A stretch of DNA of 35,703 nucleotides. It comes from a virus. Lineage: Duplodnaviria > Heunggongvirae > Uroviricota > Caudoviricetes. The DNA lies in IMG/VR virus record IMGVR_UViG_2547132279_000002; one strand, given 5' to 3'. Below are positions 1 through 35,703 of the stretch, in pieces. A model generated the notes under the pieces. The model saw nothing but the letters and a program-made list of their open reading frames with translations, had not been told where the DNA came from and did not search any database. The position numbers were made by a program, and so were the translations under genes. Positions within the stretch are counted from its first letter, which is position 1; every line of letters starts with the position of its first letter.

Positions 1-283
1 TACTGACCCGCGACGACCATTTTGCGCAGGTCACCTTTATCTGCCGCCACTCATAAGGCGGCGTCCACAGAAAGGCTTTCCAGCCCCCGTGCTCTTCCAG
101 AAACGACTCCAGTACCGTGGCCTCCTCACGGGGGACAGAAAGCGTCACGCTGTACGTTTTCAGGTTGGCATTCAGCCCGGCAGGCGCTCGCTGGGAACAG
201 CCATCACCAAAGCGCACCTTTCTTACAGAAGGGGCCGAAGCCACATCCATACCGGGTTTCACTTTCCAGCGGAAGGTTTTCAT
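1..283 (-). CDS. M: tail assembly protein M, 5' part only (gene runs off the window start)
   Basis: Reverse complement from 283 reads MKTFRWKVKPGMDVAS..., matching remembered lambda gpM N-terminus; ATG overlaps the H stop (ATGA). Confidence 0.8.
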   Translation of the reverse strand, partial: MKTFRWKVKPGMDVASAPSVRKVRFGDGCSQRAPAGLNANLKTYSVTLSVPREEATVLESFLEEHGGWKAFLWTPPYEWRQIKVTCAKWSSRVS

Positions 284-2841
284 CGTCCACCTCCGGAGAA
301 CAGACCACCATCACGCATCTGCCCGGTCACAACATCCATTGCCGCCTTACGGGCTACGTCATAAACAGCCTTCAGCGCCTGTGGCCCTATCTGACCGTTC
401 GTGCCGTCGTTGTTAATCACCACATGGTTATTCTGCTCAAACGTCCCGGACGCCTGCGACCGACTGTCCGCCATGCTGCCCGGTGTACCGACATAACCGC
501 CGGTGGCATAGCCGCGCATCAGCCGATAAAGATTCCCCACGCCAATCCGGCTGGTTGCCTCCTTCGTGAAGACAAATTCACCACGGTGAACAATCCCCGC
601 TGGCTCATATTTGCCGCCGGTTCCCGTAAATCCTCCGGTTGCAAAATGGAATTTCGCCGCAGCGGCCTGAATGGCTGTACCGCCTGACGCGGATGCGCCG
701 CCACCAACAGCCCCGCCAATGGCGCTGCCGATACTCCCGACAATCCCCACCATTGCCTGCTTAAGCAGAATTTCTGTCATCATGGACAGCACGGAACGGG
801 TGAAGCTGCGCCAGTTCTGCTCACTGCCGGTCAGCATCGCCGCCATATTCTGTGCAATACCATCAAAGGTCTGCGTGGCTGCACTTTTTACCTGCGACAT
901 ACTGTCCGTGGCGCTCTCTTCCCACTCACTCCAGCCGGACTTCAGGCCTGCCATCCAGTTCCCGCGAAGCTGGTCTTCAGCCGCCCAGGTCTTTTTCTGC
1001 TCTGACATGATGTTATTCAGCGCCAGCGGATTATCGCCATACTGTTCCTTCAGGCGCTGTTCCGTGGCTTCCCGTTCTGCCTGCCGGTCAGTCAGCCCCC
1101 GGCTTTTCGCATCAATGGCGGCCCGTTTTGCCCGTTGCTGCTGTGCGAATTTATCCGCCTGCTGCGCCAGCGCGTTCAGGCGCTCCTGATACGTAACCTT
1201 GTCGCCAAGTGCAGCCAGCTGGCGTTTGTACTCCAGCGTCTCATCTTTATGCGCCAGCAGGGATTTCTCCTGTGCAGACAGCTGGCGACGTTGCGCCGCC
1301 TCCTCCAGTACCGCGAACTGACTCTCCGCCTTCCACAAATCCCGGCGCTGCTGGCTGATTTTCTCATTTGCTCCGGCATGCTTCTCCAGCGTCCGGAGTT
1401 CTGCCTGAAGCGTCAGCAGGGCAGCATGAGCACTGTCTTCCTGACGATCGCCCGCAGACACCTTCACGCCGGACTGTTTCGGCTTTTTCAGCGTCGCTTC
1501 ATAATCCTTTTTCGCCGCCGCCATCAGCGTGTTGTAATCCGCCTGCAGGATTTTCCCGTCTTTCAGTGCCTTGTTCAGTTCTTCCTGACGGGCGGTATAT
1601 TTCTCCAGCGGCGTCTGCAGCCGTTCGTAAGCCTTCTGCGCCTCTTCGGTATATTTCAGCCGTGACGCTTCGGTATCGCTCTGCTGCTGCGCATTTTTGT
1701 CCTGTTGAGTCTGCTGCTCAGCCTTCTTTCGGGCGGCTTCAAGCGCAAGACGGGCCTTTTCACGATCATCCCAGTAACGCGCCCGCGCTTCATCGTTAAC
1801 AAAATAATCATCCTTGCGCAGATTCCAGATGTCGTCTGCTTTCTTAAACGCAGCCTCTGCCTTAATCAGCATCTCCTGCGCGGTATCAGGACGACCAATA
1901 TCCAGCACCGCATCCCACATGGATTTGAATGCCCGCGCTGTCCTGTCTGCCCAGGTCTCCAGCGTGCCCATGTTCTCTTTCAGGCGGCGGGTCTGGTCAT
2001 CAAACCCTTTCGTTGCGGCTTCGTTCGCCGCCTGCAATGCCCCGGCTTCATCGCCGGAACGCTGCAACTGAGCAACATACGCAATCTGCTCCGCCGTCAC
2101 GTTATGGAACTGGCGCGCCATCGCTGTCAGCCCTGACGTCGGGTCTGTGGTCAGCTTCCCGAAGGCTTCAGCGACCTTGTCCACCTCCACGCCGGATGCA
2201 GAGGAGAAACGCGCCACACTCTGGCTGATGGACGCAATCTGAGCCTCACCGCTTACCCCCGCCTTAACCAGTGCGCTGAGTGACTCGCTGGTCTGGTTAA
2301 ACGTCAGCCCTGCCGCCTGCCCGGCTCTGGACAGGACCAGCATACGATCTGCCGTCAGACCCGACTGATGACCGGAAAGGACCAGCGTTTTGTTGAAATC
2401 GGACAGGGTTGAGTTGCCCTGATACCAGGCATACGCCAGCGCACCGGTCGCTACCGCCAGCGAGGTGGCCCCCACCATCGGCAGGGTGAACGCACCGGCA
2501 AGCCCCCTGAACATGGGGATCATCCCGCCGAAGGAGTCCTTAACCTGACCACCCTGTTGCAGCAGGATCAGCCACGGACTTTGCCCGCCTGCAAGCTGCG
2601 TGGCCACGTCGGTGAACTGTGCAGGCAGCATACGCATGGCGGCTTTGTACTGCCCGACGGAAATCCCCGCTTTCTGTGCAGCCAGCGCCTGTCGGCTCAG
2701 CGACTGTTCAACGACTGCCGCTGTTTTTTTCGCATCACTTTCCGTACCGGAAAAATGACGCCTGACTCTGGCCATCTGCTCGTCAAATCTGGCCGCATCC
2801 AGACTCAAATCAACGACCAGATCGCCTACCGGTTCAGCCAT
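280..2841 (-). CDS. H: tail tape measure protein
   Basis: 853-aa ORF starting MAEPVGDLVVDLSLDAARFDEQ, near-identical to remembered lambda gpH; same length as lambda H. Confidence 0.95.
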   Translation of the reverse strand: MAEPVGDLVVDLSLDAARFDEQMARVRRHFSGTESDAKKTAAVVEQSLSRQALAAQKAGISVGQYKAAMRMLPAQFTDVATQLAGGQSPWLILLQQGGQVKDSFGGMIPMFRGLAGAFTLPMVGATSLAVATGALAYAWYQGNSTLSDFNKTLVLSGHQSGLTADRMLVLSRAGQAAGLTFNQTSESLSALVKAGVSGEAQIASISQSVARFSSASGVEVDKVAEAFGKLTTDPTSGLTAMARQFHNVTAEQIAYVAQLQRSGDEAGALQAANEAATKGFDDQTRRLKENMGTLETWADRTARAFKSMWDAVLDIGRPDTAQEMLIKAEAAFKKADDIWNLRKDDYFVNDEARARYWDDREKARLALEAARKKAEQQTQQDKNAQQQSDTEASRLKYTEEAQKAYERLQTPLEKYTARQEELNKALKDGKILQADYNTLMAAAKKDYEATLKKPKQSGVKVSAGDRQEDSAHAALLTLQAELRTLEKHAGANEKISQQRRDLWKAESQFAVLEEAAQRRQLSAQEKSLLAHKDETLEYKRQLAALGDKVTYQERLNALAQQADKFAQQQRAKRAAIDAKSRGLTDRQAEREATEQRLKEQYGDNPLALNNIMSEQKKTWAAEDQLRGNWMAGLKSGWSEWEESATDSMSQVKSAATQTFDGIAQNMAAMLTGSEQNWRSFTRSVLSMMTEILLKQAMVGIVGSIGSAIGGAVGGGASASGGTAIQAAAAKFHFATGGFTGTGGKYEPAGIVHRGEFVFTKEATSRIGVGNLYRLMRGYATGGYVGTPGSMADSRSQASGTFEQNNHVVINNDGTNGQIGPQALKAVYDVARKAAMDVVTGQMRDGGLFSGGGR

Positions 2842-3274
2842 ACCGGACTCCTCCTGCGATCCCTTCTGATACTGTCATCAGCATTACGTCATCCTCCGTC
2901 ATGTCCGCCACATCCGGGGAAGCGGGGATAACTTCATTCCCGTCCGGGCCAAAGCGGACACCTCCGGCAAGCCCTGCCGCTTTCTGCATCAGCACATCAT
3001 CTTCAGGCTCTTCGTCAGCCTCGCGCCGGTTCAGCAGACTGAAATCCAGCGGATGCATATCCGGATCGCTGAAAAACAGGCTGAGCACGGTGTACGTCAG
3101 CCCGGAAAAGTGCATATCCAGCAGAACATCATGAAAATAATGGGTACTGTAAAAGCGGTGCCAGTCGGCATACTCCGTGGATGACATCCCGGCAAGCATG
3201 GCACGCCAGTCGGGTCGCCCCATCTCACGCGCCAGTTTCAGGGCAAAACTCAGCTCACCGTCGAACACTTTCCC
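2834..3274 (-). CDS. T: tail assembly chaperone T segment, expressed only as G-T fusion by -1 frameshift
   Basis: 144-aa ORF in the -1 frame relative to G, overlapping the G 3' end; slippery heptamer present at 3268..3274. Confidence 0.8.
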   Translation of the reverse strand, partial: GKVFDGELSFALKLAREMGRPDWRAMLAGMSSTEYADWHRFYSTHYFHDVLLDMHFSGLTYTVLSLFFSDPDMHPLDFSLLNRREADEEPEDDVLMQKAAGLAGGVRFGPDGNEVIPASPDVADMTEDDVMLMTVSEGIAGGVRYG

Positions 3275-3672
3275 GCAGAAACAGGCTCTGCAGGCCCGGC
3301 GTCCTCTGTCTGTTCAGGGGCATTATTCACAACAAACTCATACATACCAGACAGCCGGTACACCACGTTTTCAGCATGAGAAATTGCCTCCGTGGGCCAG
3401 GTGGTAAGCACTTCCTGCTCAATCTGTTTAACGGCTTCATTCATAGACGGCATCTGCGTCTTCTGCGGATGGTTATGCCACAGGGACATCGCCACCAGAA
3501 ACGCGCCGGTTCTGATGGCGTCTTCCACAGTAAACTTCCGGTTGCTGTCTGACTCCGCCTGTTCTGCCTGCCGTTTCATCAGGGCGAGATGCTCAATACG
3601 CTGCAGGGCTGACAGTTCAGAAAGCGTGACGGTCACACCGTTATGTTCAAATGATTCGGTTTTCAGGAACAT
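3250..3672 (-). CDS. G: tail assembly chaperone G
   Basis: 140-aa ORF MFLKTESFEHNGVTVTLSELSALQRIEHL..., matches remembered lambda gpG. Confidence 0.9.
   Translation of the reverse strand: MFLKTESFEHNGVTVTLSELSALQRIEHLALMKRQAEQAESDSNRKFTVEDAIRTGAFLVAMSLWHNHPQKTQMPSMNEAVKQIEQEVLTTWPTEAISHAENVVYRLSGMYEFVVNNAPEQTEDAGPAEPVSAGKCSTVS
3268..3274 (-). promoter_or_regulatory. programmed -1 ribosomal frameshift slippery site GGGAAAG (G to G-T)
   Basis: Plus strand reads ctttccc, i.e. GGGAAAG on the coding strand, in the G/T overlap, as in lambda. Confidence 0.75.
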
Positions 3673-3687
3673 CGCTGACTCTCCGGA

Positions 3688-4428
3688 TTAACTGGCGGTG
3701 ACGTTGATTTCTGCAACCGCAGCAAGTTCACCATTACCGGATACGACCGGAATGTTGACCTTGCCTGCAGCAACACCTTTCACGGTGATGGTCATACCAC
3801 TGACCGACACGGTGGCTTTTGTTTTATCCGCTGACACCGCACGGAAGCTCTTGTCGGTTGCGCCTTCCGGCTGGAATGCCACGGTCAGCGTGGTGCTCTT
3901 CCCTTTCACTACGGAAGCGCTGGCTGGCGTCACGGTCATACCGGTTGCCGCTGTTACCGTGCTGCGATCTTCTGCCATCGACGGACGTCCCACATTGGTG
4001 ACTTTCACCGTGCGGGTGATCACTTCCTTCGCCGTCACCGCCTTACCGATACTGCTGACCCAGCCGCGGAACACATCGACCGTGCCGTTCGGGAAGCGGA
4101 TTTTATAGGCACGGGTATCACCTTCATTAAACCACGCCAGCAGCGCCTGCTGCCCCTGCTCTCCGGGCATCCACGCCAGCGTGAAGCTGGTATCTCCGGC
4201 AGATTTCTGCCCCTGTCCGGTCGCGGTCCAGTCCGCATCTTCATCATCGAGATAACTGTCGTCATAGGACTCAGCGGTCAGTTCGCCGGGCGTCAGGTCT
4301 TTAACCTTTGCCAGACGCGACCAGTCATTGTCTGAAAGCGGGTTTGCATAAGGGTCGCCGCTCCCGTTATAAACCCACAGTGTGGTCCCGGCCCCTTTCA
4401 CCGGTGCCAGAGGATTTGGTGTTGGCAT
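3688..4428 (-). CDS. V: major tail protein V
   Basis: ORF contains [33 protein letters not shown]..., matching lambda gpV; start placed at the internal Met (cat at 4426..4428) giving 246 aa like lambda V. Confidence 0.9.
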
Positions 4429-4435
4429 ATCGTCC

Positions 4436-4831
4436 TCACATTTCATAGGTAATGACATAAGTCAGATCGGCTGAACTCCACAGGCCCGCATCATCGTCGC
4501 GCCGGTAGTCATAGCCACTGGCCACCATACTGGTGATCAAATCTGACAGTGCCGGGATATCGCTCATCACCGGATAAATCCGGGACTCCATCCACGAATC
4601 CAGCTCTGAATCCGGCACCTGAGCAGGCAGGAAAACTTCAATATGCAGCTCCGCCTGCCAGGTATCGCTGTCCAGCTCTTCGCCCGTGTATTCAGCGCCG
4701 GTGAGATAAACGGCAATTGCCGGAAAATCTTCCTCATCAAAAACAGCGGGGCGACCATCAAAAAGCGTCGCCCCGGTGTCATGCTTCTCCAGTGCATCCA
4801 GTACGGCTGCACGGAGTTCAGTATGTTTCAT
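4436..4831 (-). CDS. U: tail terminator protein U
   Basis: 131-aa [48 protein letters not shown]..., matches lambda gpU. Confidence 0.9.
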
Positions 4832-5406
4832 CGCTTTATTACCATTCTCAGTTGATGCTGCAGCGCATAGCCCAGCTCTTTCGGAAGACGCTCACGCCGT
4901 ATCCGCTCAATATTCTGTTTAAACGCCGTGGTCAGCGGCACCGCCATCGGGATTTTCACCACATCAATGGGGTAACGGTTTTTCCCGGCCACACGCTGCA
5001 TGACATGCCACCGGCCATTTTTCAGTTGCTGAATAAACGCGCCGGGAATACGACGGTTTCCCACCACAAGCACGCTGCCGCCACCTTTCAGGGATGAACG
5101 CTGCCCCTTTTTACGACGCCTGCGGCGGGACAGGACAACCCGCGCATTACCCAGCCTGATTACGGGCAAATCCCCCCGGTTAACCCTGATTCTGGCCTGC
5201 GGATTTTTGACCGTGGCCCTTTTCAGCCTGGCCCTTTCCTTTACCAGTTTCCGGCGTACCTTTGTCTCACGGGCAACCTGTGACGCAGACTGCGATATCG
5301 CGGATGACGCAACGCGGTTAATGGCCATTGCGGCGGCACCAGGCACCGCCGTTTTGCTGATACGGCTGAGGTTTTCAACGGCCTGCTCAAGACCTTTTAT
5401 GGCCAT
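4828..5406 (-). CDS. Z: tail completion protein Z
   Basis: 192-aa ORF MAIKGLEQAVENLSRISKTAVPGAAAMAINRVASS..., matches lambda gpZ. Confidence 0.9.
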   Translation of the reverse strand: MAIKGLEQAVENLSRISKTAVPGAAAMAINRVASSAISQSASQVARETKVRRKLVKERARLKRATVKNPQARIRVNRGDLPVIRLGNARVVLSRRRRRKKGQRSSLKGGGSVLVVGNRRIPGAFIQQLKNGRWHVMQRVAGKNRYPIDVVKIPMAVPLTTAFKQNIERIRRERLPKELGYALQHQLRMVIKR

Positions 5407-5417
5407 ACATCCCCCTT

Positions 5418-5771
5418 TCAGCGGCGACGGTTAACGGCAGGCGGCACGCCACGCCCAAGCCAGAGATGACAGCTTCCGCCATCATCCGGCGAAACCCGGT
5501 CTATCCAGAAGTTTTCCTCACCGATGGTCAGCGTGTCTCCACGCCGCAGCTGCCGCACCTCATCAGTCCGGACAAACAGGGACGGGCTGGAGCCTTCAAC
5601 GCGCACGCCCTGTCCGGCATAGCTGATATTTTCAGGGTCATCAAAAACACCACGTATCACAGCACCGGACTGCTCACCGGATGTCATGGTGGCTGACGTT
5701 CCCATGTACCCGCGTATCGTTTCATCAGCGCGGGCAATGGCAGCATCGAACAGGTTATCGAAATCAGCCAC
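5418..5771 (-). CDS. FII: head-tail connector protein FII
   Basis: 117-aa ORF MADFDNLFDAAIARADETIRGYMGTSAT..., matches lambda gpFII. Confidence 0.9.
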   Translation of the reverse strand: MADFDNLFDAAIARADETIRGYMGTSATMTSGEQSGAVIRGVFDDPENISYAGQGVRVEGSSPSLFVRTDEVRQLRRGDTLTIGEENFWIDRVSPDDGGSCHLWLGRGVPPAVNRRR

Positions 5772-5782
5772 AGCGCCTCCCG

Positions 5783-6181
5783 TTATTGCATTCTGGCCAG
5801 GCCACGTTCTGTCATTTCGGCTGCCACACCGGCAGAGACACGAAACGCCGTTCCCGGCAGCACAAATGCCACAGGTTTATCCCGCGTGGCGTGAAGTGCA
5901 TCAGTATGCAGCGTCACCAGTGCCACGACCGTGACCAGTTCAGCCGTATCCTGAATCACGGTATCCGGCTGCGCTGATATCACCTCATTTTCATGCCCGG
6001 TCAGCACATTTTCCCGGCTGAGAGGGGTGTCCTGACCGGCAGTTTCATCCGTGTCATCAAGCTCTTCTTCCAGCTCTGCCACACGAAGCGCCAGTTCTTC
6101 TTTCGTTCCCGTCAAACTGATATCGCGGTTCAGTTGCTCACCCAGCTCCTGAAGACGGGCAATCAGTTCATCTTTCGTCAT
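5783..6181 (-). CDS. FI: DNA packaging protein FI
   Basis: ORF contains MTKDELIARLQELGEQLNRDISLTGTKEELALRVAELEEELDDTDETAGQ..., like lambda gpFI; start set at the internal ATG preceded by GGAGG. Confidence 0.85.
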   Translation of the reverse strand: MTKDELIARLQELGEQLNRDISLTGTKEELALRVAELEEELDDTDETAGQDTPLSRENVLTGHENEVISAQPDTVIQDTAELVTVVALVTLHTDALHATRDKPVAFVLPGTAFRVSAGVAAEMTERGLARMQ

Positions 6182-6204
6182 GAACTCCTCCACAGAGAGA
6201 AAAT

Positions 6205-6218
6205 GGCCCCGAAGGGCC
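6205..6218 (-). other. perfect GC-rich hairpin (ggccc-cgaa-gggcc) in the E-FI intercistronic gap
   Basis: Seen directly: inverted repeat ggccc / gggcc with a 4-nt loop between the E stop and the FI ribosome binding site. Confidence 0.5.
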
Positions 6219-6222
6219 ATGA

Positions 6223-7248
6223 TTACGCCAGTTGAACGGACACGAACTCATCAGGATCAGCCAGCAGCATCAGCGGTGCTGACTGAATCATGGTGAACTC
6301 ACGCGCCGGATCGCCGGTGGTCACCCAGTTTTTCGGGTAACGGGCAGAGGCGTTAATGCCTTCGCGCTGTGCGTCCGCATCCTGAATGCAGCCATAGGTG
6401 CGCAGACCGCGAGCCTGAGTGTTCCCCAGCACCATCGTGTTGTCCGGCAGGAAGTTCTTTTTGACGCCGTTTTCCACGTACTGTCCGGAATACACGACGA
6501 TGGCCACATCGCCATACATTCCCTTATAGGACACCGCTTTGCCCAGGTCTTTTACCGCTGTCTCCAGCTCGGAATGAGAGCCGCGACGGGTATCCAGCTT
6601 CTCCTTGACGGCTTTGAAGGAACGGAACAGCGCCCAGCCTTTCGGGTCAAACACGATGATATTCACCACACCGCTGGCGTTCAGCGCGTAGGCTTCGATA
6701 TCGTCGGTCGGGTCATACGTGGACTTGTCACGCTTGCTCCACTCCGTGCCGCCGGACTGCGTGATGTTATTCGCCGCACTGCGGCCCATATCCACCTCAA
6801 CCGGATCGAAGGCTTCACCGGTCATGGTGTATTTGCCCTTAAGCACGGCAGAAACTGCCTGCATCTCTTCGACCTGGGCAATCGCCAGATTTTCATCCAG
6901 CATATTCTGCCGAATAATACGGCGACGACGGTAAGCCGGGTCCGCCAGATTCTGCGGATCTTCATCCGGCAGGCGACGCAGGGTCATCTGCGGATTCACC
7001 TCATGCTTGGGTTTGACATATCCCGGCGTAAATTCAGAGGTGGAGCCGCCACGGGAACGGATAACCTCACCGGAAACAATCGGCGAAACGTACAGCGCCA
7101 TGTTTACCAGTCCCGGAATTTGTGAGAGATAGACTTTCTCCGTGGTGAAAGGATAGGTTTCACGGAAAAACAGGCGCAGAAACAGCGGATCGAACTTAAA
7201 GTGATGCTGGGTCGATGCCAGTAATTCTGCAGTTGTATATACAGACAT
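6223..7248 (-). CDS. E: major capsid protein E
   Basis: 341-aa ORF MSVYTTAELLASTQHHFKFDPLFLRLFFRETYPFTTEKVYLSQIPGLVNMALYVSP..., matches lambda gpE. Confidence 0.95.
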   Translation of the reverse strand: MSVYTTAELLASTQHHFKFDPLFLRLFFRETYPFTTEKVYLSQIPGLVNMALYVSPIVSGEVIRSRGGSTSEFTPGYVKPKHEVNPQMTLRRLPDEDPQNLADPAYRRRRIIRQNMLDENLAIAQVEEMQAVSAVLKGKYTMTGEAFDPVEVDMGRSAANNITQSGGTEWSKRDKSTYDPTDDIEAYALNASGVVNIIVFDPKGWALFRSFKAVKEKLDTRRGSHSELETAVKDLGKAVSYKGMYGDVAIVVYSGQYVENGVKKNFLPDNTMVLGNTQARGLRTYGCIQDADAQREGINASARYPKNWVTTGDPAREFTMIQSAPLMLLADPDEFVSVQLA

Positions 7249-7261
7249 AAATTATTTCCAT

Positions 7262-7282
7262 AAAAAAAGCCGCACAGGCGGC
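7262..7282 (-). terminator. hairpin plus U-tract between D and E (terminator or attenuator-like)
   Basis: Minus strand reads GCCGCCTGTGCGGC followed by TTTTTTT, located after the D stop and before the E start. Confidence 0.45.
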
Positions 7283-7303
7283 CTTTGTTGATGAAGGGGA
7301 AGA

Positions 7304-7636
7304 TTAAACGATGCTGATTGCCGTTCCGGCAAACGCGGTCCGTTTTTTAGTCTCGTCGCTGGCAGCCTCCGGCCAGAGCACATCCTCATAACGGAACGAG
7401 CCGGACTTGTAGAACGTCAGTGTGGTGCTGGTCTGGTCAGCAGCAACCGCCAGAATGCCAACGGCTGCACCGTCGGTGGTGCCATCCCACACAACCAGCT
7501 TACGGGTAGTGCCATCCAGCATCAGCGGGGTCATTGCAGGCGTTTTCGCACTCAATCCGCCAGGCGCAATTGCTGTATGAGCCGGATCACTGTTACCCAG
7601 CGGCTGGTAATGGTTAAACTCTTCTTTTGTCGCCAT
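7304..7636 (-). CDS. D: head decoration protein D
   Basis: 110-aa ORF ...[32 protein letters not shown]...[11 protein letters not shown], matches lambda gpD. Confidence 0.95.
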
Positions 7637-7645
7637 AACTGCCTC

Positions 7646-8053
7646 TTATACCGGTAAAGCTTCAGGTGTATTAAGTAATTCTTTATTGGTATCAGATGCC
7701 AGGTTACCTGCAGCCAGCGGTGCCGGTGTACCCTGCATCAGACGATCCAGCGCAGTGTCACTGCGCGCCTGTGCACTCTGTGGTGCTGCAGCCAGAATGC
7801 GGCGGGCCGTTTCCACGGTCATTCCGGGGGTTTCTGCCAGAACGCGCGCCTGTTCTTCGCGTCCGTGAGCCTCCTCACAGTTGAGGATCCCCATAATGCG
7901 GCTGTTTTCTGCCGCAACCGCAGCGGTGATCTGCGCGTTCACGTCCGGCTGCGCCGCGCTGGCGTTTTCGCCCTCCGTCGCTGGCACCACGTCAGTAACG
8001 TCAGCCTGCGAAGCAGTGGCTGAAACAGTTGTTGATTGAGTCTCTTTGGTCAT
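7646..8053 (-). CDS. Nu3: scaffolding protein Nu3 (in-frame internal start within C)
   Basis: Internal ATG giving MTKETQSTTVSATASQ... to the shared stop; position follows the lambda C/Nu3 nested arrangement. Start placement is inferred. Confidence 0.55.
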   Translation of the reverse strand: MTKETQSTTVSATASQADVTDVVPATEGENASAAQPDVNAQITAAVAAENSRIMGILNCEEAHGREEQARVLAETPGMTVETARRILAAAPQSAQARSDTALDRLMQGTPAPLAAGNLASDTNKELLNTPEALPV

Positions 8054-8957
8054 TCGCCCTCCTGAGAGACGGGATTTACGTGCATCCAGTGCATCACGCA
8101 TAACGGTGATCGCATCGGTGCTGTTGACAAGTTCATCAGCCAGTCCGGCATCAATGGCCTCCTGACCGCTGTACACTGCAGCCTCGGTATCCAGCACAGC
8201 CTGCACGGACAGGCCGGTATATGCCGACACCTTCTGCGCAAACATCCGGCGGGTTGCATCCATCCGGGACTGCAGTGTCTCCCGGACGTCATCCGGAAGA
8301 TGGCTGTAGGGGTTGCCATCCACCTTATGGCTGCCGCTGTAAATCAGCGTGATTTCCACGCCCTGTTTCTCCAGCGCAGCACCGTAATTACTGTGAGCCA
8401 TCATGACGCCGATGGAGCCTGTCCGGGCGGTCTGCGTGACCAGACGCCGGGAGGCGGCGCTGGCAAGCAGCTGACCTGCACTGCAGTTCATGTCGTTGGC
8501 CAGCGCCCATACCGGTTTTATGTCTCGCACACGGGCGATGATGTCAGCACAGTCAAATGCTCCCGCCACCATCCCGCCCGGTGTGTCCATATCGAGCAGA
8601 ATGCCGTCCACCATCGGATCGCTGGCAGCCTGTTGCAGACGGGCGATAATGCCGTTGTAACCGGTCATTCCCGAATACGGCTGCAGCGCCCGCGTCCGGC
8701 TGACCAGCGTACCGGACACCGGCAGCACGGCGATGCCGTTCATGACCTGATAACTGCGGGCCTGTCGTGGTCCGTCATCATCACCGGATAACGCCAGCGC
8801 CGCGGGTGCCTCTCCGGCAGTCAGGCTGTCGCCGGACACCGCATCCGTCAGGCGACTGATCCCAAGCTGGCCTGCAAGCGCACAAAAGAAAACCCGCGCA
8901 TAGGCGGGTTCAAGCATCAGCGGCTCATTAAAAGCCATGCTGGCAATATGCGGGAGA

Positions 8958-8977
<20 letters not shown>
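7646..8977 (-). CDS. C: head maturation protease / scaffold C
   Basis: ORF contains VTAELRNLPHIASMAFNEPLMLEPAYARVFFCALAGQLGIS..., matching lambda gpC; start placed at GTG (8975..8977) preceded by GAGGAGGAGAAGA; the longer ORF in the track is an upstream extension. Confidence 0.85.
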
Positions 8978-12582
<3,605 letters not shown>

Positions 12583-12612
12583 GTAAGCGACTCGTCAGAA
12601 CCGTATTGATAT

Positions 12613-14184
12613 TTACTGAGAGGTCAGATCAACTTTCCAGGGCAACAGATCGCGTACCCGGTTTGCCGGCCAGTCCTGGATATGTTCAATGACGTAACGC
12701 AGCCACTTTTCTGGCTCCACATTGTTCAGACGGCATGTGCCGATCAGCGAGTACAACACCGCCGCATGTTCACCACCGCTGTCGGAACCCGCAAACATCC
12801 AGTTTTTCCGGCCTACGACCACTCCCCGTAAGGCGTTCTCTGCGATGTTGTTGTCGATTTCCACCCAGCCATTACTGCAGTACACGTTCAGTGCATCCCA
12901 CTGTTTCAGCAGGTATGCGAACGCTTTTGCCGTATCTGAGTGACGCGACAGTGTTTTCATCTGTTGCTGTATCCAGTCATACAGTGACTGCATCAGTGGC
13001 GCGGCTCTGGCTTTTCTTGCCGCCAGACGCTGTTCTGCTGAACAGCCCCGGACCTCTGCCTCGATGGCATACAGTTCACCGATACGCTGCAGGGCTTCCG
13101 TGGTGATGTAGGTGGGCGCTTTTGCATGCACATCGTGGATTTTTCTCCGGGCATGAGCCATACACGCGGCTTCCGTTATTCTGCCGGATTCGTATAACGC
13201 CCGGTAACCACCGTAAGCATCGGCCTGAAGCACACCGCTGTAACCGGCCAGGTGATTTTGTGGATGGATACCTTTCCGGTCCGGACTGTACGCGAACCAG
13301 ACCGCCGGGGGCATCTGTGAACCGGCGTTACGGTCATCACGGACGTAGACCCACAGCCGGGCTGTCCGGGTTTTACCGCTGCCCGGCTCCTGGACCGGGA
13401 CGGGGATATCATCAGCATGGACTTTACCGGGCATCAGCACATACTGGCGCAGGACGTCATACAGCGGCTCCAGCAGTTCAGCAACAGCACCTGTCCAGCG
13501 CCCCAGTGTGGCACGGCTCAGCTCCACTCCCTGACGACGGTATATTTCTGACTGGCGGTATAACGGCAGATGGTCTGCATACTTCCCGGTGACGATATGA
13601 GCCAGAAGCCCCGCTCCGGCATAACTGCGTGCAATGGGTTTTGAAGGTACTGGTGCCTGCACGATATGGTCGCACCGGCAACAGGCCAGTTTCGGACGTT
13701 GTGTTTCGATAACCTTAAAAGCGCTGCTGATAAGCTCCAGTTGCTCTGACACATCACACCCCAGAGGACTGAGGTCACCACCACAGGCCGGGCAGCATTC
13801 CTCTTCCGGCCGGATGACCCGGGTTTCACGGGGAAGTGAGGCCGGTAACGGCTTACGGGCTGAAGACTGGCGCAGGGCGGATGGCAGTACCGGGTCATAT
13901 TGCTCACCCAGCGTTTCCGCCATTTCTTCCTGAAGTGCGCTGATTCGCTCCTGGGCTTCCTGTATCTGCCGTTCGGTTTTAGCGCGAAGTTTTTCTGAGC
14001 TTTTACCGAACTGCATGCGCTGCAGTTTCGCAACCAGCGCCTTCAGCCGGTTGATTTCGGAAGCATAAGCCGCCACCCGCTGTGAGAGCAGGCGGTTGTA
14101 TTTCGCCATCTGGCGGATGGTGTCCTGTTGCGTCTGCAACAGTGCCCGCAGGCGGGCATTCTCATGAGCAAGTGAGGTGTCCAT
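12613..14184 (-). CDS. IS66-family transposase (Orf3/TnpC)
   Basis: 523-aa ORF with N-terminal coiled-coil, CxxC...CxxC zinc-finger-like segment and DDE-type core as remembered for IS66 transposases. Confidence 0.85.
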
Positions 14185-14203
14185 ATCCTCACTTTACAAC
14201 GGG

Positions 14204-14551
14204 TTATATGCGGATGCCAGCGCGTTCCGTTCGTTTCGGGTGCTTCCAGTTGATACCTTCAAGAAGCATAGATAACTGAGCCGGAGTAAGGTGCACCTTG
14301 CCGTCACGGGTAACCGGCCAGACGAAGCGGCCCCGCTCCAGGCGTTTGGTGAAGAGGCACAGTCCGTCACTGTCAGCCCACAACACTTTTATCTGGTCAC
14401 CCCGGCGTCCGCGGAAGATGAACAGATGCCCGGAGAACGGGTCATCCTTCAGGACGTTCTGAACTTTTGATGCCAGGCCGTTAAAACCATTTCGCATGTC
14501 GGTGATACCGGCAACCAGCCAGATACGCGAACCGGCAGGGAGAGATATCAT
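14204..14551 (-). CDS. IS66 Orf2 (TnpB accessory protein)
   Basis: 115-aa ORF MISLPAGSRIWLVAGITDMRNGFNGLASKVQNVLKDDPFSGHLFIFRGRRGDQIKVLWADSDGLCLF..., characteristic IS66 Orf2. Confidence 0.85.
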   Translation of the reverse strand: MISLPAGSRIWLVAGITDMRNGFNGLASKVQNVLKDDPFSGHLFIFRGRRGDQIKVLWADSDGLCLFTKRLERGRFVWPVTRDGKVHLTPAQLSMLLEGINWKHPKRTERAGIRI

Positions 14552-15201
14552 TAGTGGCTGCTCCCTTTCATTTCGCGGATAAGTGTCTGTAATAACGCCG
14601 GTGTCAGTTCACCTTTCAGCCTGAGAGTTCCGGCCGGCAGAACCAGCTCACAGCACAGACTGTCGGGCGGTGTATTTATCTGTTCAGGTATCTGCACTGG
14701 TGCCGGGATTTTATTATCCGGCTCCGGAGTTAACGTCACGGGAAGTAGCGATGTTTCATGTTCGCCGGTCGGCTGCAGGCCGCCGTTACGCCAGAGATGC
14801 CGCCAGTTAAAGAGCAGGTTATCGTTGATTCCGTTCTCACGAGCTATTTGTGCGACACAGGCACCGGGTAAAAGAGTTTGCTGAACAAGCCTCCATTTAA
14901 ACTCCGGTGAAAATCGGTTCCGGCGGATTTTCTCTGTTTTCACAGGCTGAGTCACTGTCGGGGCTGAAGGGTATCGCCCCGGGAACAGAGCCCGGGCCAG
15001 TTGCACGCAGGAATATTCTCCGGAAAGAGGCCAGTCAGTGAATACCTGGTGAAATCGCCTCACCAGAGAAAAAATGGCGGTTTTGCTGATACCGGTCTGC
15101 GCAGAAATGCGCGGGTACGACAGTGACTCGTCAAATCTCAGTTGTAGCACACGCAGGATCAATTCCGGATTGTCTGCCAGTACCGCTTTTCGTGCATTCA
15201 T
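14551..15201 (-). CDS. IS66 Orf1 (TnpA accessory protein)
   Basis: 216-aa ORF immediately upstream of and overlapping Orf2 (ATGA), typical IS66 organisation. Confidence 0.75.
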   Translation of the reverse strand: MNARKAVLADNPELILRVLQLRFDESLSYPRISAQTGISKTAIFSLVRRFHQVFTDWPLSGEYSCVQLARALFPGRYPSAPTVTQPVKTEKIRRNRFSPEFKWRLVQQTLLPGACVAQIARENGINDNLLFNWRHLWRNGGLQPTGEHETSLLPVTLTPEPDNKIPAPVQIPEQINTPPDSLCCELVLPAGTLRLKGELTPALLQTLIREMKGSSH

Positions 15202-15286
15202 CTTAAATGTCCCTTTACTGCGAAAATGGACATTAGTATCGGAAACAGGAAAGGGAGGCGAAAGACGGTTTAAATGAGACGGTTAC

Positions 15287-22090: not shown

Positions 22091-22612
22091 GCTTCACCTC
22101 CGCAGAGGTCAAACGTTGGATGCAAAGAATCGCAGGTGCATTTCTGCATCTGTGAAGGGAGAAGAGAGTTTAGATTGTATGTGCGCATAAACGTCCCCGT
22201 TTAGCGCAGAAGTCACCGGAGGTGTTCAGGCTCCGATGCGATAATTATGACGATCTGATTTTGGAAAATCAAATTTAAGTAACCGCCAACCTATAATTTT
22301 CAATCAAGATTTCATTTATTAGCTCACTCATATAAAAATACATTACAACGTTTTTATCTCTTAATTTATGAAGGCAACCTCGAAAAACAAATCACCCAAA
22401 CACTTTAAAACAATTAAACCCGTTTAAAATTACAATTACATTTAGAAAGCAAACTTTCAAAAGATGTGATGATACAATTGCATAAAACAAATACTTGGGG
22501 TAAAATATAAAAATAACACTCCCAGCTTAACGCTAGGTGGCGGTAGCGTGTATTTTTCAAATACGCCTATCACCCCATTATGTTTTTTCATATTTAAGAG
22601 ATTGGTTATATA

Positions 22613-24399
22613 ATGGAACTAATATACACTTATATCCACAATTATAAAGGTTTAAATAAGCTGTCCCTCCCCACCTCAAGTAAATTTACCTTTAGCCATA
22701 AAGGTAACGTCCTTACAATTGCTAAGAAAGATTTAAGTCGTGACTATTATAGCAATATTCCCTGTACATTAATTTTAGGGAAAAATGGTGTTGGAAAGTC
22801 ATCAATTTTAGATTTCATTAGTAGCTTTATTTACGATTTTGAAGGTAGCGGTTATAGCATCTGGAATGAAAATGATAAACTTATAATTATCACAAGCAAT
22901 TGCAAACCTCCTGTAATATTATCCAAAATGCAAACGGAACTAATTGATAATAATGAACATTTTTTTAGAAGAAACAAAATCAATCTAATAAAGATAAATA
23001 ACACAATCGACCTCAAAAGTATGTTAGTTGGACAAAAAAGAAAAAAAACGATTCGATTTCTAAAGATTTATCACTGTCATATTTTTTGCAAGGCAGTAAA
23101 ACACGCAATAAGAAATTACTCAAGCAATTAATTTCATTTTCAGACCACAGTTCATGGGCTAAAGACAATTTATCAAGACTTAATACTAAATTTCAATTTG
23201 AAATAGAAAACTCACCAGTATATAAAATAAATTCTATTATAAAAAACAATGATATTGGTGACAAAGGACTTTTTGGAGCTATTGAATACTTTTTTGATAC
23301 GTTGAATGATAGAATTAAAAACAATAAACTCCCTAGATATATTGAACGTGATTTAGATTCTTTAGGTATTTCACTTGTGGATATACTCAATCATGGGATA
23401 GATTACGATGAAGATTTTATTATTAGCATTATTTTTAACAAAGAAAGATCATTAAATTTCCTCGCAACCTTTTCATATCACAAAATAATTTACTTGATGC
23501 TTTTGCCTGCAATAACATGGCATTTACTCAAGACATCAAAAATCCCTAAAGACATATGTGAGACTGTTTATTTATTTTGCTTGTGTCGCGCGTATCTTGA
23601 AGAAAAAGATCCAGCAAAAACTATATTAGAGACTTTAGATGAATTTAACGTTAATGTTAAATTTCAGTCAAAAATAGAAATGTTATCTGAACATATCTCC
23701 GACATTATAGGTAATATAGCTGATATATTAGAAAACACAGCAAGAGACCCAGTTGATAGTTTATCTTTCACAGTTGAAGAACCAAAGCAGATTATGGAGT
23801 TAATAAGATTAGTTGATAGGTTACCAAATGGCGTATCATCGCGATTTAAGTATGGTTGGGATTCACTTAGTTCAGGAGAGTTTGCAAAATTAAACCTTTT
23901 CAATCAACTTTATGATTCTATAGAACATAGCAACAGCAAAAATATTATAATATTATTAGATGAGTGTGATTTATATCTACACCCTGAATGGCAACGAGTT
24001 ATTTTTTCAGAAATTATAGATTTAACATTAAGATATAAACAAAGTAAAAATATTCAATTAGTATTTACAACTCACTCCCCTATACTCGCAAGTGATTTTT
24101 TGCCATCAGATATAATATATCTTGAAAGAGATCATAATCAAGGAACCTATACTAAGAAAGTAGAGTTTGGTTTCGGAGCAACCATATCAGAATTATATAT
24201 AAATGGTTTTTTTATTGATGCTACAATAGGACAGCACGCACATAATTATCTAAACTCAATAATAAAAAACTCAGATGACGGTAATTTAAATAAACATCAA
24301 AAAACCATACTATCACAAATTAAAAATAAACTTCTCATAAATCTTATTGATCTGAAGTTAAACAAAAACAATGATAAAACAGATTCTTTTGAGAAATGA
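22613..24399 (+). CDS. ABC-type (AAA15/AAA21-like) ATPase, reading frame broken at a poly-A run (~23034..23049); PtuA-like
   Basis: Two overlapping ORFs (22613..23131 and 23086..24399) in different frames. Walker A LILGKNGVGKSS in the first; signature-like LSSGEFAKLN, Walker B IIILLDECDLYLHPEW and H-loop FTTHSP in the second. The second frame is open from 23002; the switch falls in aaaaaagaaaaaaaa. Confidence 0.65.
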
Positions 24400-24408
24400 G
24401 TAAAAAAA

Positions 24409-25601
24409 ATGATAAAAATAAACAAAGACTTCAATGTTGATGTAAAAATATCCTTTTCTAAAATAGTAAGCAAAGTTAATAAACGCGTGAAGCAGAGGAA
24501 GTTACTGAACATTACTCCCGATGAAGTAGAGTTTCTAAATACAATCAACAAAAAAACTATCAGAAAATTAGTTTTTTCAAAACCCAAACGATTAAAAAAT
24601 ATAATCATCAAAATATACAACAAACACCCAATTGTGTGTGAGTACTATTCTCCTGATTATTTTTTAAGGCACTTAAATTTACAACCATTAACAAACCTAC
24701 AATTACCTTTAAAAACAAAAGAAACAAAAAAATAGTTTATAATGAACTAGCACATGCCATCAAAATAATCACATCTTTCTCTCAAACTACACAAAGCCTA
24801 ATACTTGAGGATATATTAAATACACATTTCTCACCACAAAAATTATCTAGTTTAAGAGATAAGATTCTTAATCTTATAAGTATCAAGAATGGTGGTCCTT
24901 TAAAGGAAAATACCATTAAGTTATTTCCATCATGGGTTAAAAATATTTCTGAAATATTTAAATACTCACTTATTGATAGAGAAACAGCGTATCAATTGAA
25001 CAGTTTTTTAGACATTAGCATATGCCCATATTGCAACAGTGAAGAAATTGAACAAGTAGAAGACCATACAGGTACTAGCTACAGGCCAGCATTTGATCAT
25101 TTCATACCTAAGTACAAATATCCGTTGATCTCCTTTAGTTTATTTAACTTAATTCCTAGCTGCACTAAATGCAATAGTACTTATAAAAAATCACTCGATC
25201 CGATCATGAGCCCATTTTCAAATCCTTTTCTTGAAGGTGTAAATGACACTCAGCTTTTTGATTTTAATTATGACATTGATTATATATATAGAGATGGCCA
25301 AATTGATGATGATCACATTCAAATTATACTAAAAAAACAAAAAAACAACATCGATGAAAACATGGCTAAACTTAGCATAGAGAATAGATATAATTCACGC
25401 ATTAGAAAGAAAGCAGTTAGATTAATTGCAAAGAGAGCATTTGATCTAAAAGCTTATGAAGAAAATTTCATTATAGAACCAACTCTTTTCGCTACTTTCG
25501 GTTACGAGACTAACATTGAGCCGCTAAAGCATATGCATAAAAAACTTACTCAAGATGCAATATTAGTATTCTGCAACAAACAAGTACCGTTAATTGAATA
25601 A
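24409..25601 (+). CDS. HNH endonuclease-domain protein, frame broken at a poly-A run (~24711..24731); PtuB-like
   Basis: ORF 24996..25601 carries CPYCNSEEIE...FDHFIPKYKYP...NLIPSCTKCNSTYK (HNH with two CxxC pairs) but starts at TTG; its frame is open back to 24657 with no ATG and abuts ORF 24409..24735, which ends in gaaacaaaaaaatag. Confidence 0.55.
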
Positions 25602-25946
25602 GTAAAATGAAAGGATATCGAGCTATATAATGTAGTATGTCGAAAAATCAAACAGAAAAAAATCGAATAGTTACACTGTGCTCGGTGCTGTCTTCATGCT
25701 CCGTTCCTCTCGTAGGCTAGTAAAATTCGCGTCATCACCGGGCTTGGGGGCCATCATCGAAAATCTGATTGGTGCTTTTGTGCCAAGAGATTTCCTCTTC
25801 GGTTACCAATCGGTAGTGAATCGTTCGCTAGATATTGCTGACATCGACCAGATCGCCCTGCTTTGTCAGAATGTTTACGGTCTGGTTGATGCCGCAGGAT
25901 GAACTATATTTTCTGGGGGAAAGGTTTTATGTGTCTTGAAGGTAGT

Positions 25947-29381: not shown

Positions 29382-30245
29382 ATGGATTGTGACGCTTTAC
29401 AGGATATAAAAATCTCTCTTAGGTATGACGGAAAAGATGCTTTAAATCATGAAATAGATTTGAACTGCCTAGGAGAATCCCTAAAGGGTTTTTCTAAAGT
29501 TCTCTCAACAGCAGCTTCTTTCTCTGTTACACAAAAATATAGTAAATACATTAATTATCAGGAAGTTAAGGTTTACGCACGCGAAGCAAAAGCTAACTGC
29601 TTTACTCTTGAAGCAGTTCTTAACTTCGCCACTCAGAACCAGTTGTTCTCGGGGATCGCCGCAACTATACTTGGCGCAATACTACAATATATTTTTGCGA
29701 GAAATTCTAACAAGAAAGATGAAATGAAAGCTTTGCAGCAGTCACTTGAAAAGGCCATAGAGGCACTAGGAAACAAGGATGCTGGAACCATTGATAAGTT
29801 GATCTCTTTGATTGACCGAATGGCTGTAGAGCTTCGCCCCTCTGTAAGGCAGGCAGTATCACCTATTGGTAATACTTGCGATCAGATAAGTGTTGCAACA
29901 AATGTTGACGGCTGCCTTCTAAAAGTTAACGAGAGAGATAAAGCTGAAATTGATAGGCTTGATGATGATGAAGTTCTCGGTCTTCGTGAGTATCGTGCTT
30001 TTCTTACAGAATTTGATGCACAAAATATGACAGCTAAAATAATTTTAGATGGTGATGACTCAAAAAAGAGAATCACTGCTGAAATTAGCGATCCAGCTGC
30101 AGGAAAGAAGAATAACCCGTATATTAGAGCTCTTAGTGCATATATATCAACCAAAGGTGATCCATCTGCAGTATTCACTATAACCGCAAAGGCTACTGTT
30201 AAAAAAGGCCAGATAAACAGGTTATTTATTGTAGATGCGAAATGA
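29382..30245 (+). CDS. hypothetical 287-aa protein in the rex position immediately downstream of cI
   Basis: Long ORF co-oriented with cI, visibly more AT-rich than cI, with one hydrophobic segment [19 protein letters not shown]; followed by a strong terminator; no family recognised. Confidence 0.6.

Positions 30246-34610: not shown

Positions 34611-35703
<1,093 letters not shown>

Follow-up and report, generated by a model that had tools for sequence, protein, structure and literature searches.

Sequence comparisons show that an open reading frame at 24409-24735 and the HNH-bearing frame at 24657-25601, which lie in an AT-rich island of a prophage of enterotoxigenic Escherichia coli, are two halves of one gene. 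The reading that we favor, with a probability of about 0.58, is that this is the single nuclease gene of a PDC-M62 module, which would have been truly inactivated by slippage and would have suffered many independent knockouts in E. coli. All positions are those of the window, by which we mean the whole 35,703-nucleotide stretch of DNA that was analysed, and the genes, runs and lesions of the island are given on its plus strand.

Two reading frames are the halves of one nuclease gene

The upstream frame (24409-24735) starts with ATG, encodes 108 amino acids and ends in GAA ACA AAA AAA TAG, where an A7 run occupies 24726-24732 and the TAG stop codon 24733-24735. The HNH-bearing frame is preceded by a TGA at 24654-24656, is open from 24657 and reaches its stop codon at 25599-25601, and the first ATG, GTG or TTG codon that it contains is the TTG at 24996. 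Addition of one base anywhere in the overlap of the two frames (24657-24735) yields a single ORF of 397 amino acids. A preliminary description of this DNA had reported a break in the reading frame at this place, and all that it stated about the sequence in doing so was confirmed.

Its proposal that the two frames would fuse into one protein of about 397 residues was borne out by other E. coli genomes. The 3.3-kb stretch is present in five complete E. coli genomes at 99.3-99.9% identity, and strains EC38 and AR_0077 carry at the corresponding position (99.3-99.8% DNA identity) one coding sequence of 1194 nucleotides, which specifies 397 amino acids and has an intact gene for a 595-residue AAA ATPase directly 5' of it. 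Once repaired by fusion, the protein of the window and that of EC38 are distinguished by two residues only. An intact allele also exists on the haplotype of the window itself (P0156, indexed in 375 blocks).

A search of 5.8 billion proteins retrieved the full-length homologs that the preliminary description had proposed to look for; they have 396 to 401 residues and come from eight other genera. The homologs of Serratia, Morganella, Enterobacter, Citrobacter, Pantoea, Atlantibacter and Ewingella show 44-84% identity at approximately 100% coverage, and that of Enterovibrio shows 30% identity across 85% of the query. In an alignment of 13 homologs, conservation runs from M1 to the C-terminus and includes N-terminal positions as well as K107 at the break. 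The arrangement that the preliminary description had named as refuting its proposal, a small upstream gene followed by a separately initiated HNH gene, was found in none of the surveyed homologs, an outcome that speaks for the fusion.

The N-terminal fragment of the nuclease (24409-24735) consists of residues 1-105 of the ancestral protein, followed by T-K-K and a stop in the shifted frame. The remainder of the ancestral coding sequence (24725-25601) specifies residues 107-397 and is out of frame with the start codon; within it, the remnant ORF that begins at the TTG (24996-25601, 201 amino acids) corresponds to residue 197 onward and contains the whole PtuB-like HNH module. No start codon in the window gives residues 107-196, and we found no convincing Shine-Dalgarno-like sequence at a suitable distance 5' of the TTG at 24996. 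The NCBI annotation of the draft genome lists the nuclease pieces as separate hypothetical proteins. For annotation, the fusion means that the 108-residue and 131/201-residue "hypothetical proteins" of the draft would be one disrupted gene, and the ATPase fragments likewise.

A single-base deletion in an A4 run shifts the frame at codon 106

The preliminary description had attributed the break to a one-base slip inside the A7 run that precedes the TAG codon. Base-by-base alignment places it elsewhere: the missing base belongs to an A4 run two bases 5' of the A7 run, where GAAAAC has become GAAAC (24722-24724). All 21 of the other locus copies read G AAAA C AAAAAAA TAG, and the window reads G AAA C AAAAAAA TAG. 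Because the run is flanked by G and C, the placement of the A4-to-A3 change is unambiguous. The A7 run is common to all 22 loci compared, which rules out a slip within it as the lesion, and the run together with its TAG (24726-24735) is unaltered in the window, where the mutant frame reads it as A_AAA_AAA TAG. The A3 allele at 24722-24724 was seen in the window contig only. Loss of this one base displaces the reading frame from codon 106 onward, and in the AlphaFold model residue 106 stands at the beginning of a helix (residues 104-125) in the folded N-terminal region, and no linker is located there.

The prophage and its accessory island

The exact 108-residue product is recorded from one contig only, AELC01000040.1 of assembly GCA_000166575.2. 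The source is the enterotoxigenic E. coli strain TW10828 (Guinea-Bissau, 1996), represented by a 2010-era draft (AELC01). TW10828 belongs to ETEC lineage L3 and is a close relative of ETEC-2264, and a later complete nanopore assembly of the strain is cited as GCA_032368225.1 (PMC10761095). The contig carries a DLP12-type lambdoid prophage with an nmpC-type porin gene, quuD, rusA, ybcO, ninE, ybcN, the island, P, O and the gene of a cI-like repressor.

Several other features of the prophage were observed in the course of the comparison. An IS66-family element (tnpA/tnpB/tnpC) at 12583-15286 lies inside the gene for the large subunit of terminase, relative to ETEC-2264 and E2980, and 8 bp of the reference (L006 22289-22296) are common to both of its flanks, as would be expected of a target-site duplication; since the terminase gene is interrupted by this insertion, the prophage is defective in this strain. 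The tail tape-measure region at 1-1100 holds 91 of the 92 differences from E2980 within 1-12582, balanced 3-nt indels included, and the remaining 11.4 kb of that segment contain one SNP; this part of the tail gene resembles a patch of recombination or a variable repeat region. At the contig end (35002-35703), two pieces (35002-35134 and 35134-35703) align in opposite orientations with the IS100/integrase junction of ETEC-2264, which suggests that this end is arranged differently or that the assembly was joined at the border of the IS. An ORF of 287 amino acids at 29382-30245, a hypothetical protein (WP_000340376.1) in related genomes, stands beside the gene of the cI-like S24 repressor, at the place of rexAB in lambda, and might represent a further accessory or exclusion gene carried by the prophage.

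The AT-rich accessory island (22600-25620; 25-33% GC) is situated between ybcN, which is ninB-like, and the replication gene P, and its module of ATPase and HNH genes runs opposite to the flanking phage early genes. The island had no match in the phage collection, and the plasmid search returned distant matches to the HNH core only. A scan of this AT-rich DNA for promoters and terminators was uninformative (23 sites as compared with 20.9 expected). One strain whose module is intact has an IS1 directly 3' of the nuclease gene and before gene P (L023 4218-4915, GCA_031020845.1), another sign of an insertion hotspot at this spot.

The preliminary description also referred to a further homopolymer break in the island, and comparison with intact copies showed that the upstream ATPase gene is indeed broken at a poly-A tract. 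The intact tract is A7-G-A8, and the window has A6-G-A8 (23034-23048), with one A missing from the first run (23034-23039). The frameshift leads to an early stop, and the N-terminal fragment (22613-23131) comprises 172 amino acids of the 595-residue AAA_15/AAA_21 ATPase, the intact coding sequence of which is present in ETEC-2264, E2980, EC38 and AR_0077. The tract includes an in-phase A_AAA_AAA heptamer at 23041-23047. The C-terminal part (23086-24399) is a mechanical ORF of 437 amino acids that begins at a TTG and has AAA_15/AAA_21 matches. Because both genes are frameshifted, with the nuclease cut and the ATPase split into pieces of 172 and 437 amino acids, the system is, to judge from this sequence, non-functional in this strain.

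In E. coli strains EC38 and AR_0077 the ATPase and nuclease genes are on the same strand and separated by 9 nt. The ATPase gene is also located directly 5' of the nuclease gene, either overlapping it or next to it, in Morganella, Ewingella and Enterovibrio, where the contexts are unrelated, and the maintenance of the pair in such different surroundings is as expected for a mobile module. The gap from the stop codon of the ATPase gene to the start of the nuclease gene is spanned by an A8 run (24402-24409) whose length, A8 or A7, varies among strains. With A7, which is the state in many strains, an upstream ATG within an ATGA that overlaps the ATPase stop comes into frame, and the product is a 401-residue variant beginning MSKKMIK (P0157, 92 contigs). 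The polymorphism alters the start and the translational coupling and leaves the nuclease gene unbroken.

Relationship of the module to PDC-M62 and Septu

The intact EC38 proteins were used for the PADLOC profile search. The best match of the ATPase was PDC-M62A (PDLC04734; E = 3.5e-44, 149.8 bits; residues 1-570 aligned with positions 1-548 of the 597-position profile), and that of the nuclease was PDC-M62B (PDLC04743; E = 1.4e-33); the PDC-M62B model PDLC04741 was matched at E = 5.5e-26 by residues 1-347, aligned with positions 1-323 of 401. The Septu profiles gave weaker matches: PtuA at 4.8e-19, covering only the C-terminal part of the ATPase (residues ~440-575), and PtuB at 2.5e-8. The ATPase matched PtuA of the PDB at 3.3e-7. 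Pfam identified AAA_21/AAA_15 in the ATPase and HNH in the nuclease, the latter at 18.8 bits, which is under the cut-off of 21.4. Scores with the curated NCBIfam models were below their cut-offs as well, being 48.7 bits versus 500 for PtuA (NF041760) and 13.7 versus 150 for PtuB (NF041761), and TIGR02646 gave 14.8 versus 52.15.

AlphaFold modelled the intact nuclease as one compact unit (pLDDT 91.4, pTM 0.86) in which a helical region of approximately residues 10-201 is followed by the HNH module. Foldseek searches with this model detected no solved structure resembling the whole protein and no structural match for the N-terminal helical region of ~200 amino acids (best E, 0.34). The HNH core at 25023-25187 (residues C206-K260; CxxC ... 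DH ... N ... CxxCN ... K) is supported by the matches to the PtuB profile and to PDB entries, and its motif positions are invariant in 55 homologs. The invariant residues C206/C209, D230-H231, N247 and C255-N256 fit what would be a zinc-stabilised HNH site. According to the structural model, the intact protein comprises an entire nuclease of the PtuB fold, preceded by a conserved extension of ~200 residues at the N-terminus.

We consider the module to be a two-gene anti-phage candidate, PDC-M62, and a putative distant relative of Septu. It shares with PDC-M62 the best library matches for both proteins and the order of adjacent genes, ATPase and then nuclease, but in the window both genes are frameshifted, and the family is itself a computational candidate only. 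Our literature search found no experimental work on PDC-M62; the one paper retrieved that names the family is a census of defence systems of Bacillus cereus.

With Septu (PtuA plus PtuB, including the retron PtuAB of Ec78/Eco7 and Ec83) the module has in common a two-gene operon of an ATPase and an HNH protein, the match of the ATPase C-terminal region to PtuA, and the motif CxxC...DH...N...CxxCN, and the nuclease of the window has the three-dimensional fold of PtuB in the model. It differs in that its nuclease has 397 residues, whereas stand-alone PtuB has ~215-235 (the PtuB chains of the PDB, 210-234), that the curated-model scores of its proteins are far under the cut-offs, and that the window contains no retron. 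The 201-residue remnant at 24996-25601 has the size and the fold content of a canonical stand-alone PtuB, and its exact product was found in five Logan contigs.

Both genes have been disrupted repeatedly in E. coli

The disruption alleles were taken from assemblies of independent projects, among them complete genomes and separate read sets. By our count across E. coli, the nuclease gene has been disrupted independently at least seven times and the ATPase gene at least five times, mostly in A/T runs. The A7 run at 24550-24556, which is intact in the window, is A6 in ETEC-2264, E2980 and 90-9280; this separate frameshift is carried by the closest relatives of the window, and its products of 53 and 322 amino acids were found on 22 and 200 contigs, respectively. 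The nuclease gene is also broken by loss of TT at 24899 (38 contigs), by a change of A7 to A8 at 24726 in two backgrounds (P0125 and P0126, on 5 and 2 contigs), by a change of A7 to A6 at the same position (P0134), by a 10-bp duplication at 24726-24735 (P0129) and by a nonsense codon at 294. True disruption affects approximately one third of the nuclease gene copies on record. The ATPase tract is A7GA8 in intact copies, A6GA8 in the window and in SRR28255171, A7GA7 in nine assemblies and A7GA9 in strain 90-9280, and other copies of the gene carry a T7-to-T6 change at 22960.

The SRR28255171 read set is unrelated to the window and has A6GA8 on a different haplotype, and neither A6GA8 nor A7GA7 is confined to a single SNP haplotype. 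Within a single haplotype that shows no SNP over 3.1 kb, there are four indel genotypes, at different sites. All of the indels among the 21 loci are located inside the island, and none is located in the ~4.7 kb of flanking DNA, although up to 154 SNPs were observed there. The ~30 kb of the contig outside the island, which hold 33 of the 55 runs of at least six bases in the window and 8 of the 16 runs of at least seven, show no indel relative to ETEC-2264 and E2980.

The preliminary description had interpreted two homopolymer breaks in one island as the result of either a systematic cause, namely sequencing chemistry, or repeated selection to switch the system off. The population data favor repeated real inactivation; sequencing chemistry may account for the A3 of the window, which is a singleton.

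Discussion

If the module functions as its relatives suggest, the 397-residue nuclease would be the effector of an ATPase-plus-nuclease module that a DLP12-type prophage carries as cargo, between its genes ybcN and P. In published work (PMC13096335, PMC12673091), canonical and retron-associated PtuAB is described as an ATPase-nuclease complex that cleaves tRNA-Tyr on infection. By analogy, an oligomer of the ATPase would hold and control the nuclease until infection, whereupon the nuclease would cut tRNA or DNA and growth would be arrested. In the window, the A4-to-A3 deletion would have moved the frame at codon 106 and led translation to the TAG just past the A7 run. The most likely cause of the frameshifts would be true slippage during replication of a very AT-rich coding sequence with many lysine codons. 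The heptamer AAAAAAA is generally avoided in E. coli genes, plausibly on account of slippage and indels (PMC4066793), which would make a horizontally acquired gene of 29% GC fragile in E. coli. The loss would afterwards have been tolerated or favored, since cells can do without nuclease systems of this kind, which may be costly to them.

We think it probable that the A3 deletion of the window is a real mutation. One could envision instead a sequencing or consensus error, such that TW10828 truly has GAAAAC, that its nuclease gene is intact or bears the clade allele only, and that the missing A is a homopolymer undercall; the A7-to-A6 call in the ATPase gene may be an error of the same kind. We regard this account as possible but doubtful. 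The A3 allele and the 108-residue product are singletons among several hundred contigs that carry the nuclease gene, and because the singleton stems from a 2010-era draft, a chemistry artefact is possible for that base. AELC01 is an early draft genome that was reportedly made by 454 pyrosequencing, a method that miscounts homopolymers. The window and ETEC-2264/E2980 are separated by three A-run indels as compared with one SNP in 19.7 kb, a pattern that base-calling error would fit too. However, the ~30 kb outside the island are free of indels despite their share of the long runs, a consensus is not likely to miscount a homopolymer of only four bases, and the A6GA8 allele of the ATPase gene recurs in an unrelated read set. 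Moreover, as about one third of the recorded copies are broken, there is no prior reason to think a real lesion improbable.

Other readings accept the sequence but not the loss of function. Expression might be regulated or leaky, with the homopolymer tracts serving as a reversible ON/OFF switch (phase variation), as in the phase-variable restriction-modification genes, which are an example of contingency defence genes. We consider this improbable. Both deletions of the window do lie just 5' of an in-phase A_AAA_AAA (23041-23047, and 24726-24732 followed by TAG), and a -1 slip at either heptamer would restore a full-length product with one substitution, so that the window alleles could be slightly leaky. 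Tract alleles A6/A7/A8 and A7/A8/A9 coexist on near-identical haplotypes, and AAAAAAA has been noted in E. coli as prone to transcriptional slippage and indels (PMC4066793). Yet the shifted arrangement is not conserved, given that 21 of 21 other copies have A4 and all full-length homologs are single ORFs, and no downstream structure exceeds that of shuffled sequences (MFE, -3.5 and -6.3 kcal/mol; z = -0.20 and +0.21). Nor are runs of at least seven bases enriched (four per gene observed versus 3.0 and 2.8 expected from synonymous shuffling); for runs of at least six in the nuclease gene, the same procedure gave a marginal result (10 versus 6.5 expected, P = 0.024). The A7 and A8 tracts are short for a contingency locus, the nuclease lesion of the window sits in an A4 run, and the lesions are scattered, with a nonsense codon, the TT deletion and the 10-bp duplication among them, which points to decay rather than to one switch. 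The locus resembles both homopolymer frameshift pseudogenes and phase-variable defence genes in its loss by one-nucleotide changes of runs and in having several tract alleles per species, but it departs from the phase-variable genes in the shortness of its runs (A4, A7, A8), in their frequency, which is as composition predicts, and in its non-tract lesions. We rejected a programmed -1 ribosomal frameshift, for which the in-phase heptamer is present but the arrangement is unique to this contig and no stimulatory structure was detected, and likewise a designed contingency locus, for which the tract enrichment test was negative.

The A-runs might also act as a crude attenuator, the deletions being placed 5' of A_AAA_AAA so that basal -1 frameshifting or slippage would give a few percent of full-length proteins and slips would restore or abolish the frame. 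This is quite unlikely in our estimation; if it were true, the dose of a toxic nuclease system in E. coli would be set in a heritable and reversible way. The idea that the locus contains two genuine genes, one for the 108-residue protein and one for an HNH protein initiated at the TTG at 24996, has very little probability. The likeness of the 201-residue remnant to stand-alone PtuB in size and content and the separate entries in the NCBI draft annotation agree with it, but residues 107-196, which neither piece encodes, are conserved and confidently folded, the 108-residue product occurs on a single contig, the TTG lacks a suitably spaced Shine-Dalgarno-like sequence, and no homolog is arranged in this way. 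We take the homolog survey to rule it out.

True inactivation of a single nuclease gene is the reading that we favor. Taken as a single event, it is an ordinary frameshift pseudogene; the recurrent inactivation of both genes is modestly interesting, and a claim that the loss was selected rather than neutral would rest on the counts of disruptions. The module, a common passenger of DLP12-type prophages in E. coli, appears to have undergone at least 12 independent knockouts, often on otherwise identical DNA. Such a pattern fits a cost of carriage, such as autoimmunity caused by the nuclease. The strains would also provide a natural allelic series (intact, ATPase-only, nuclease-only and both broken) with which the defence activity of PDC-M62 and its cost could be tested.
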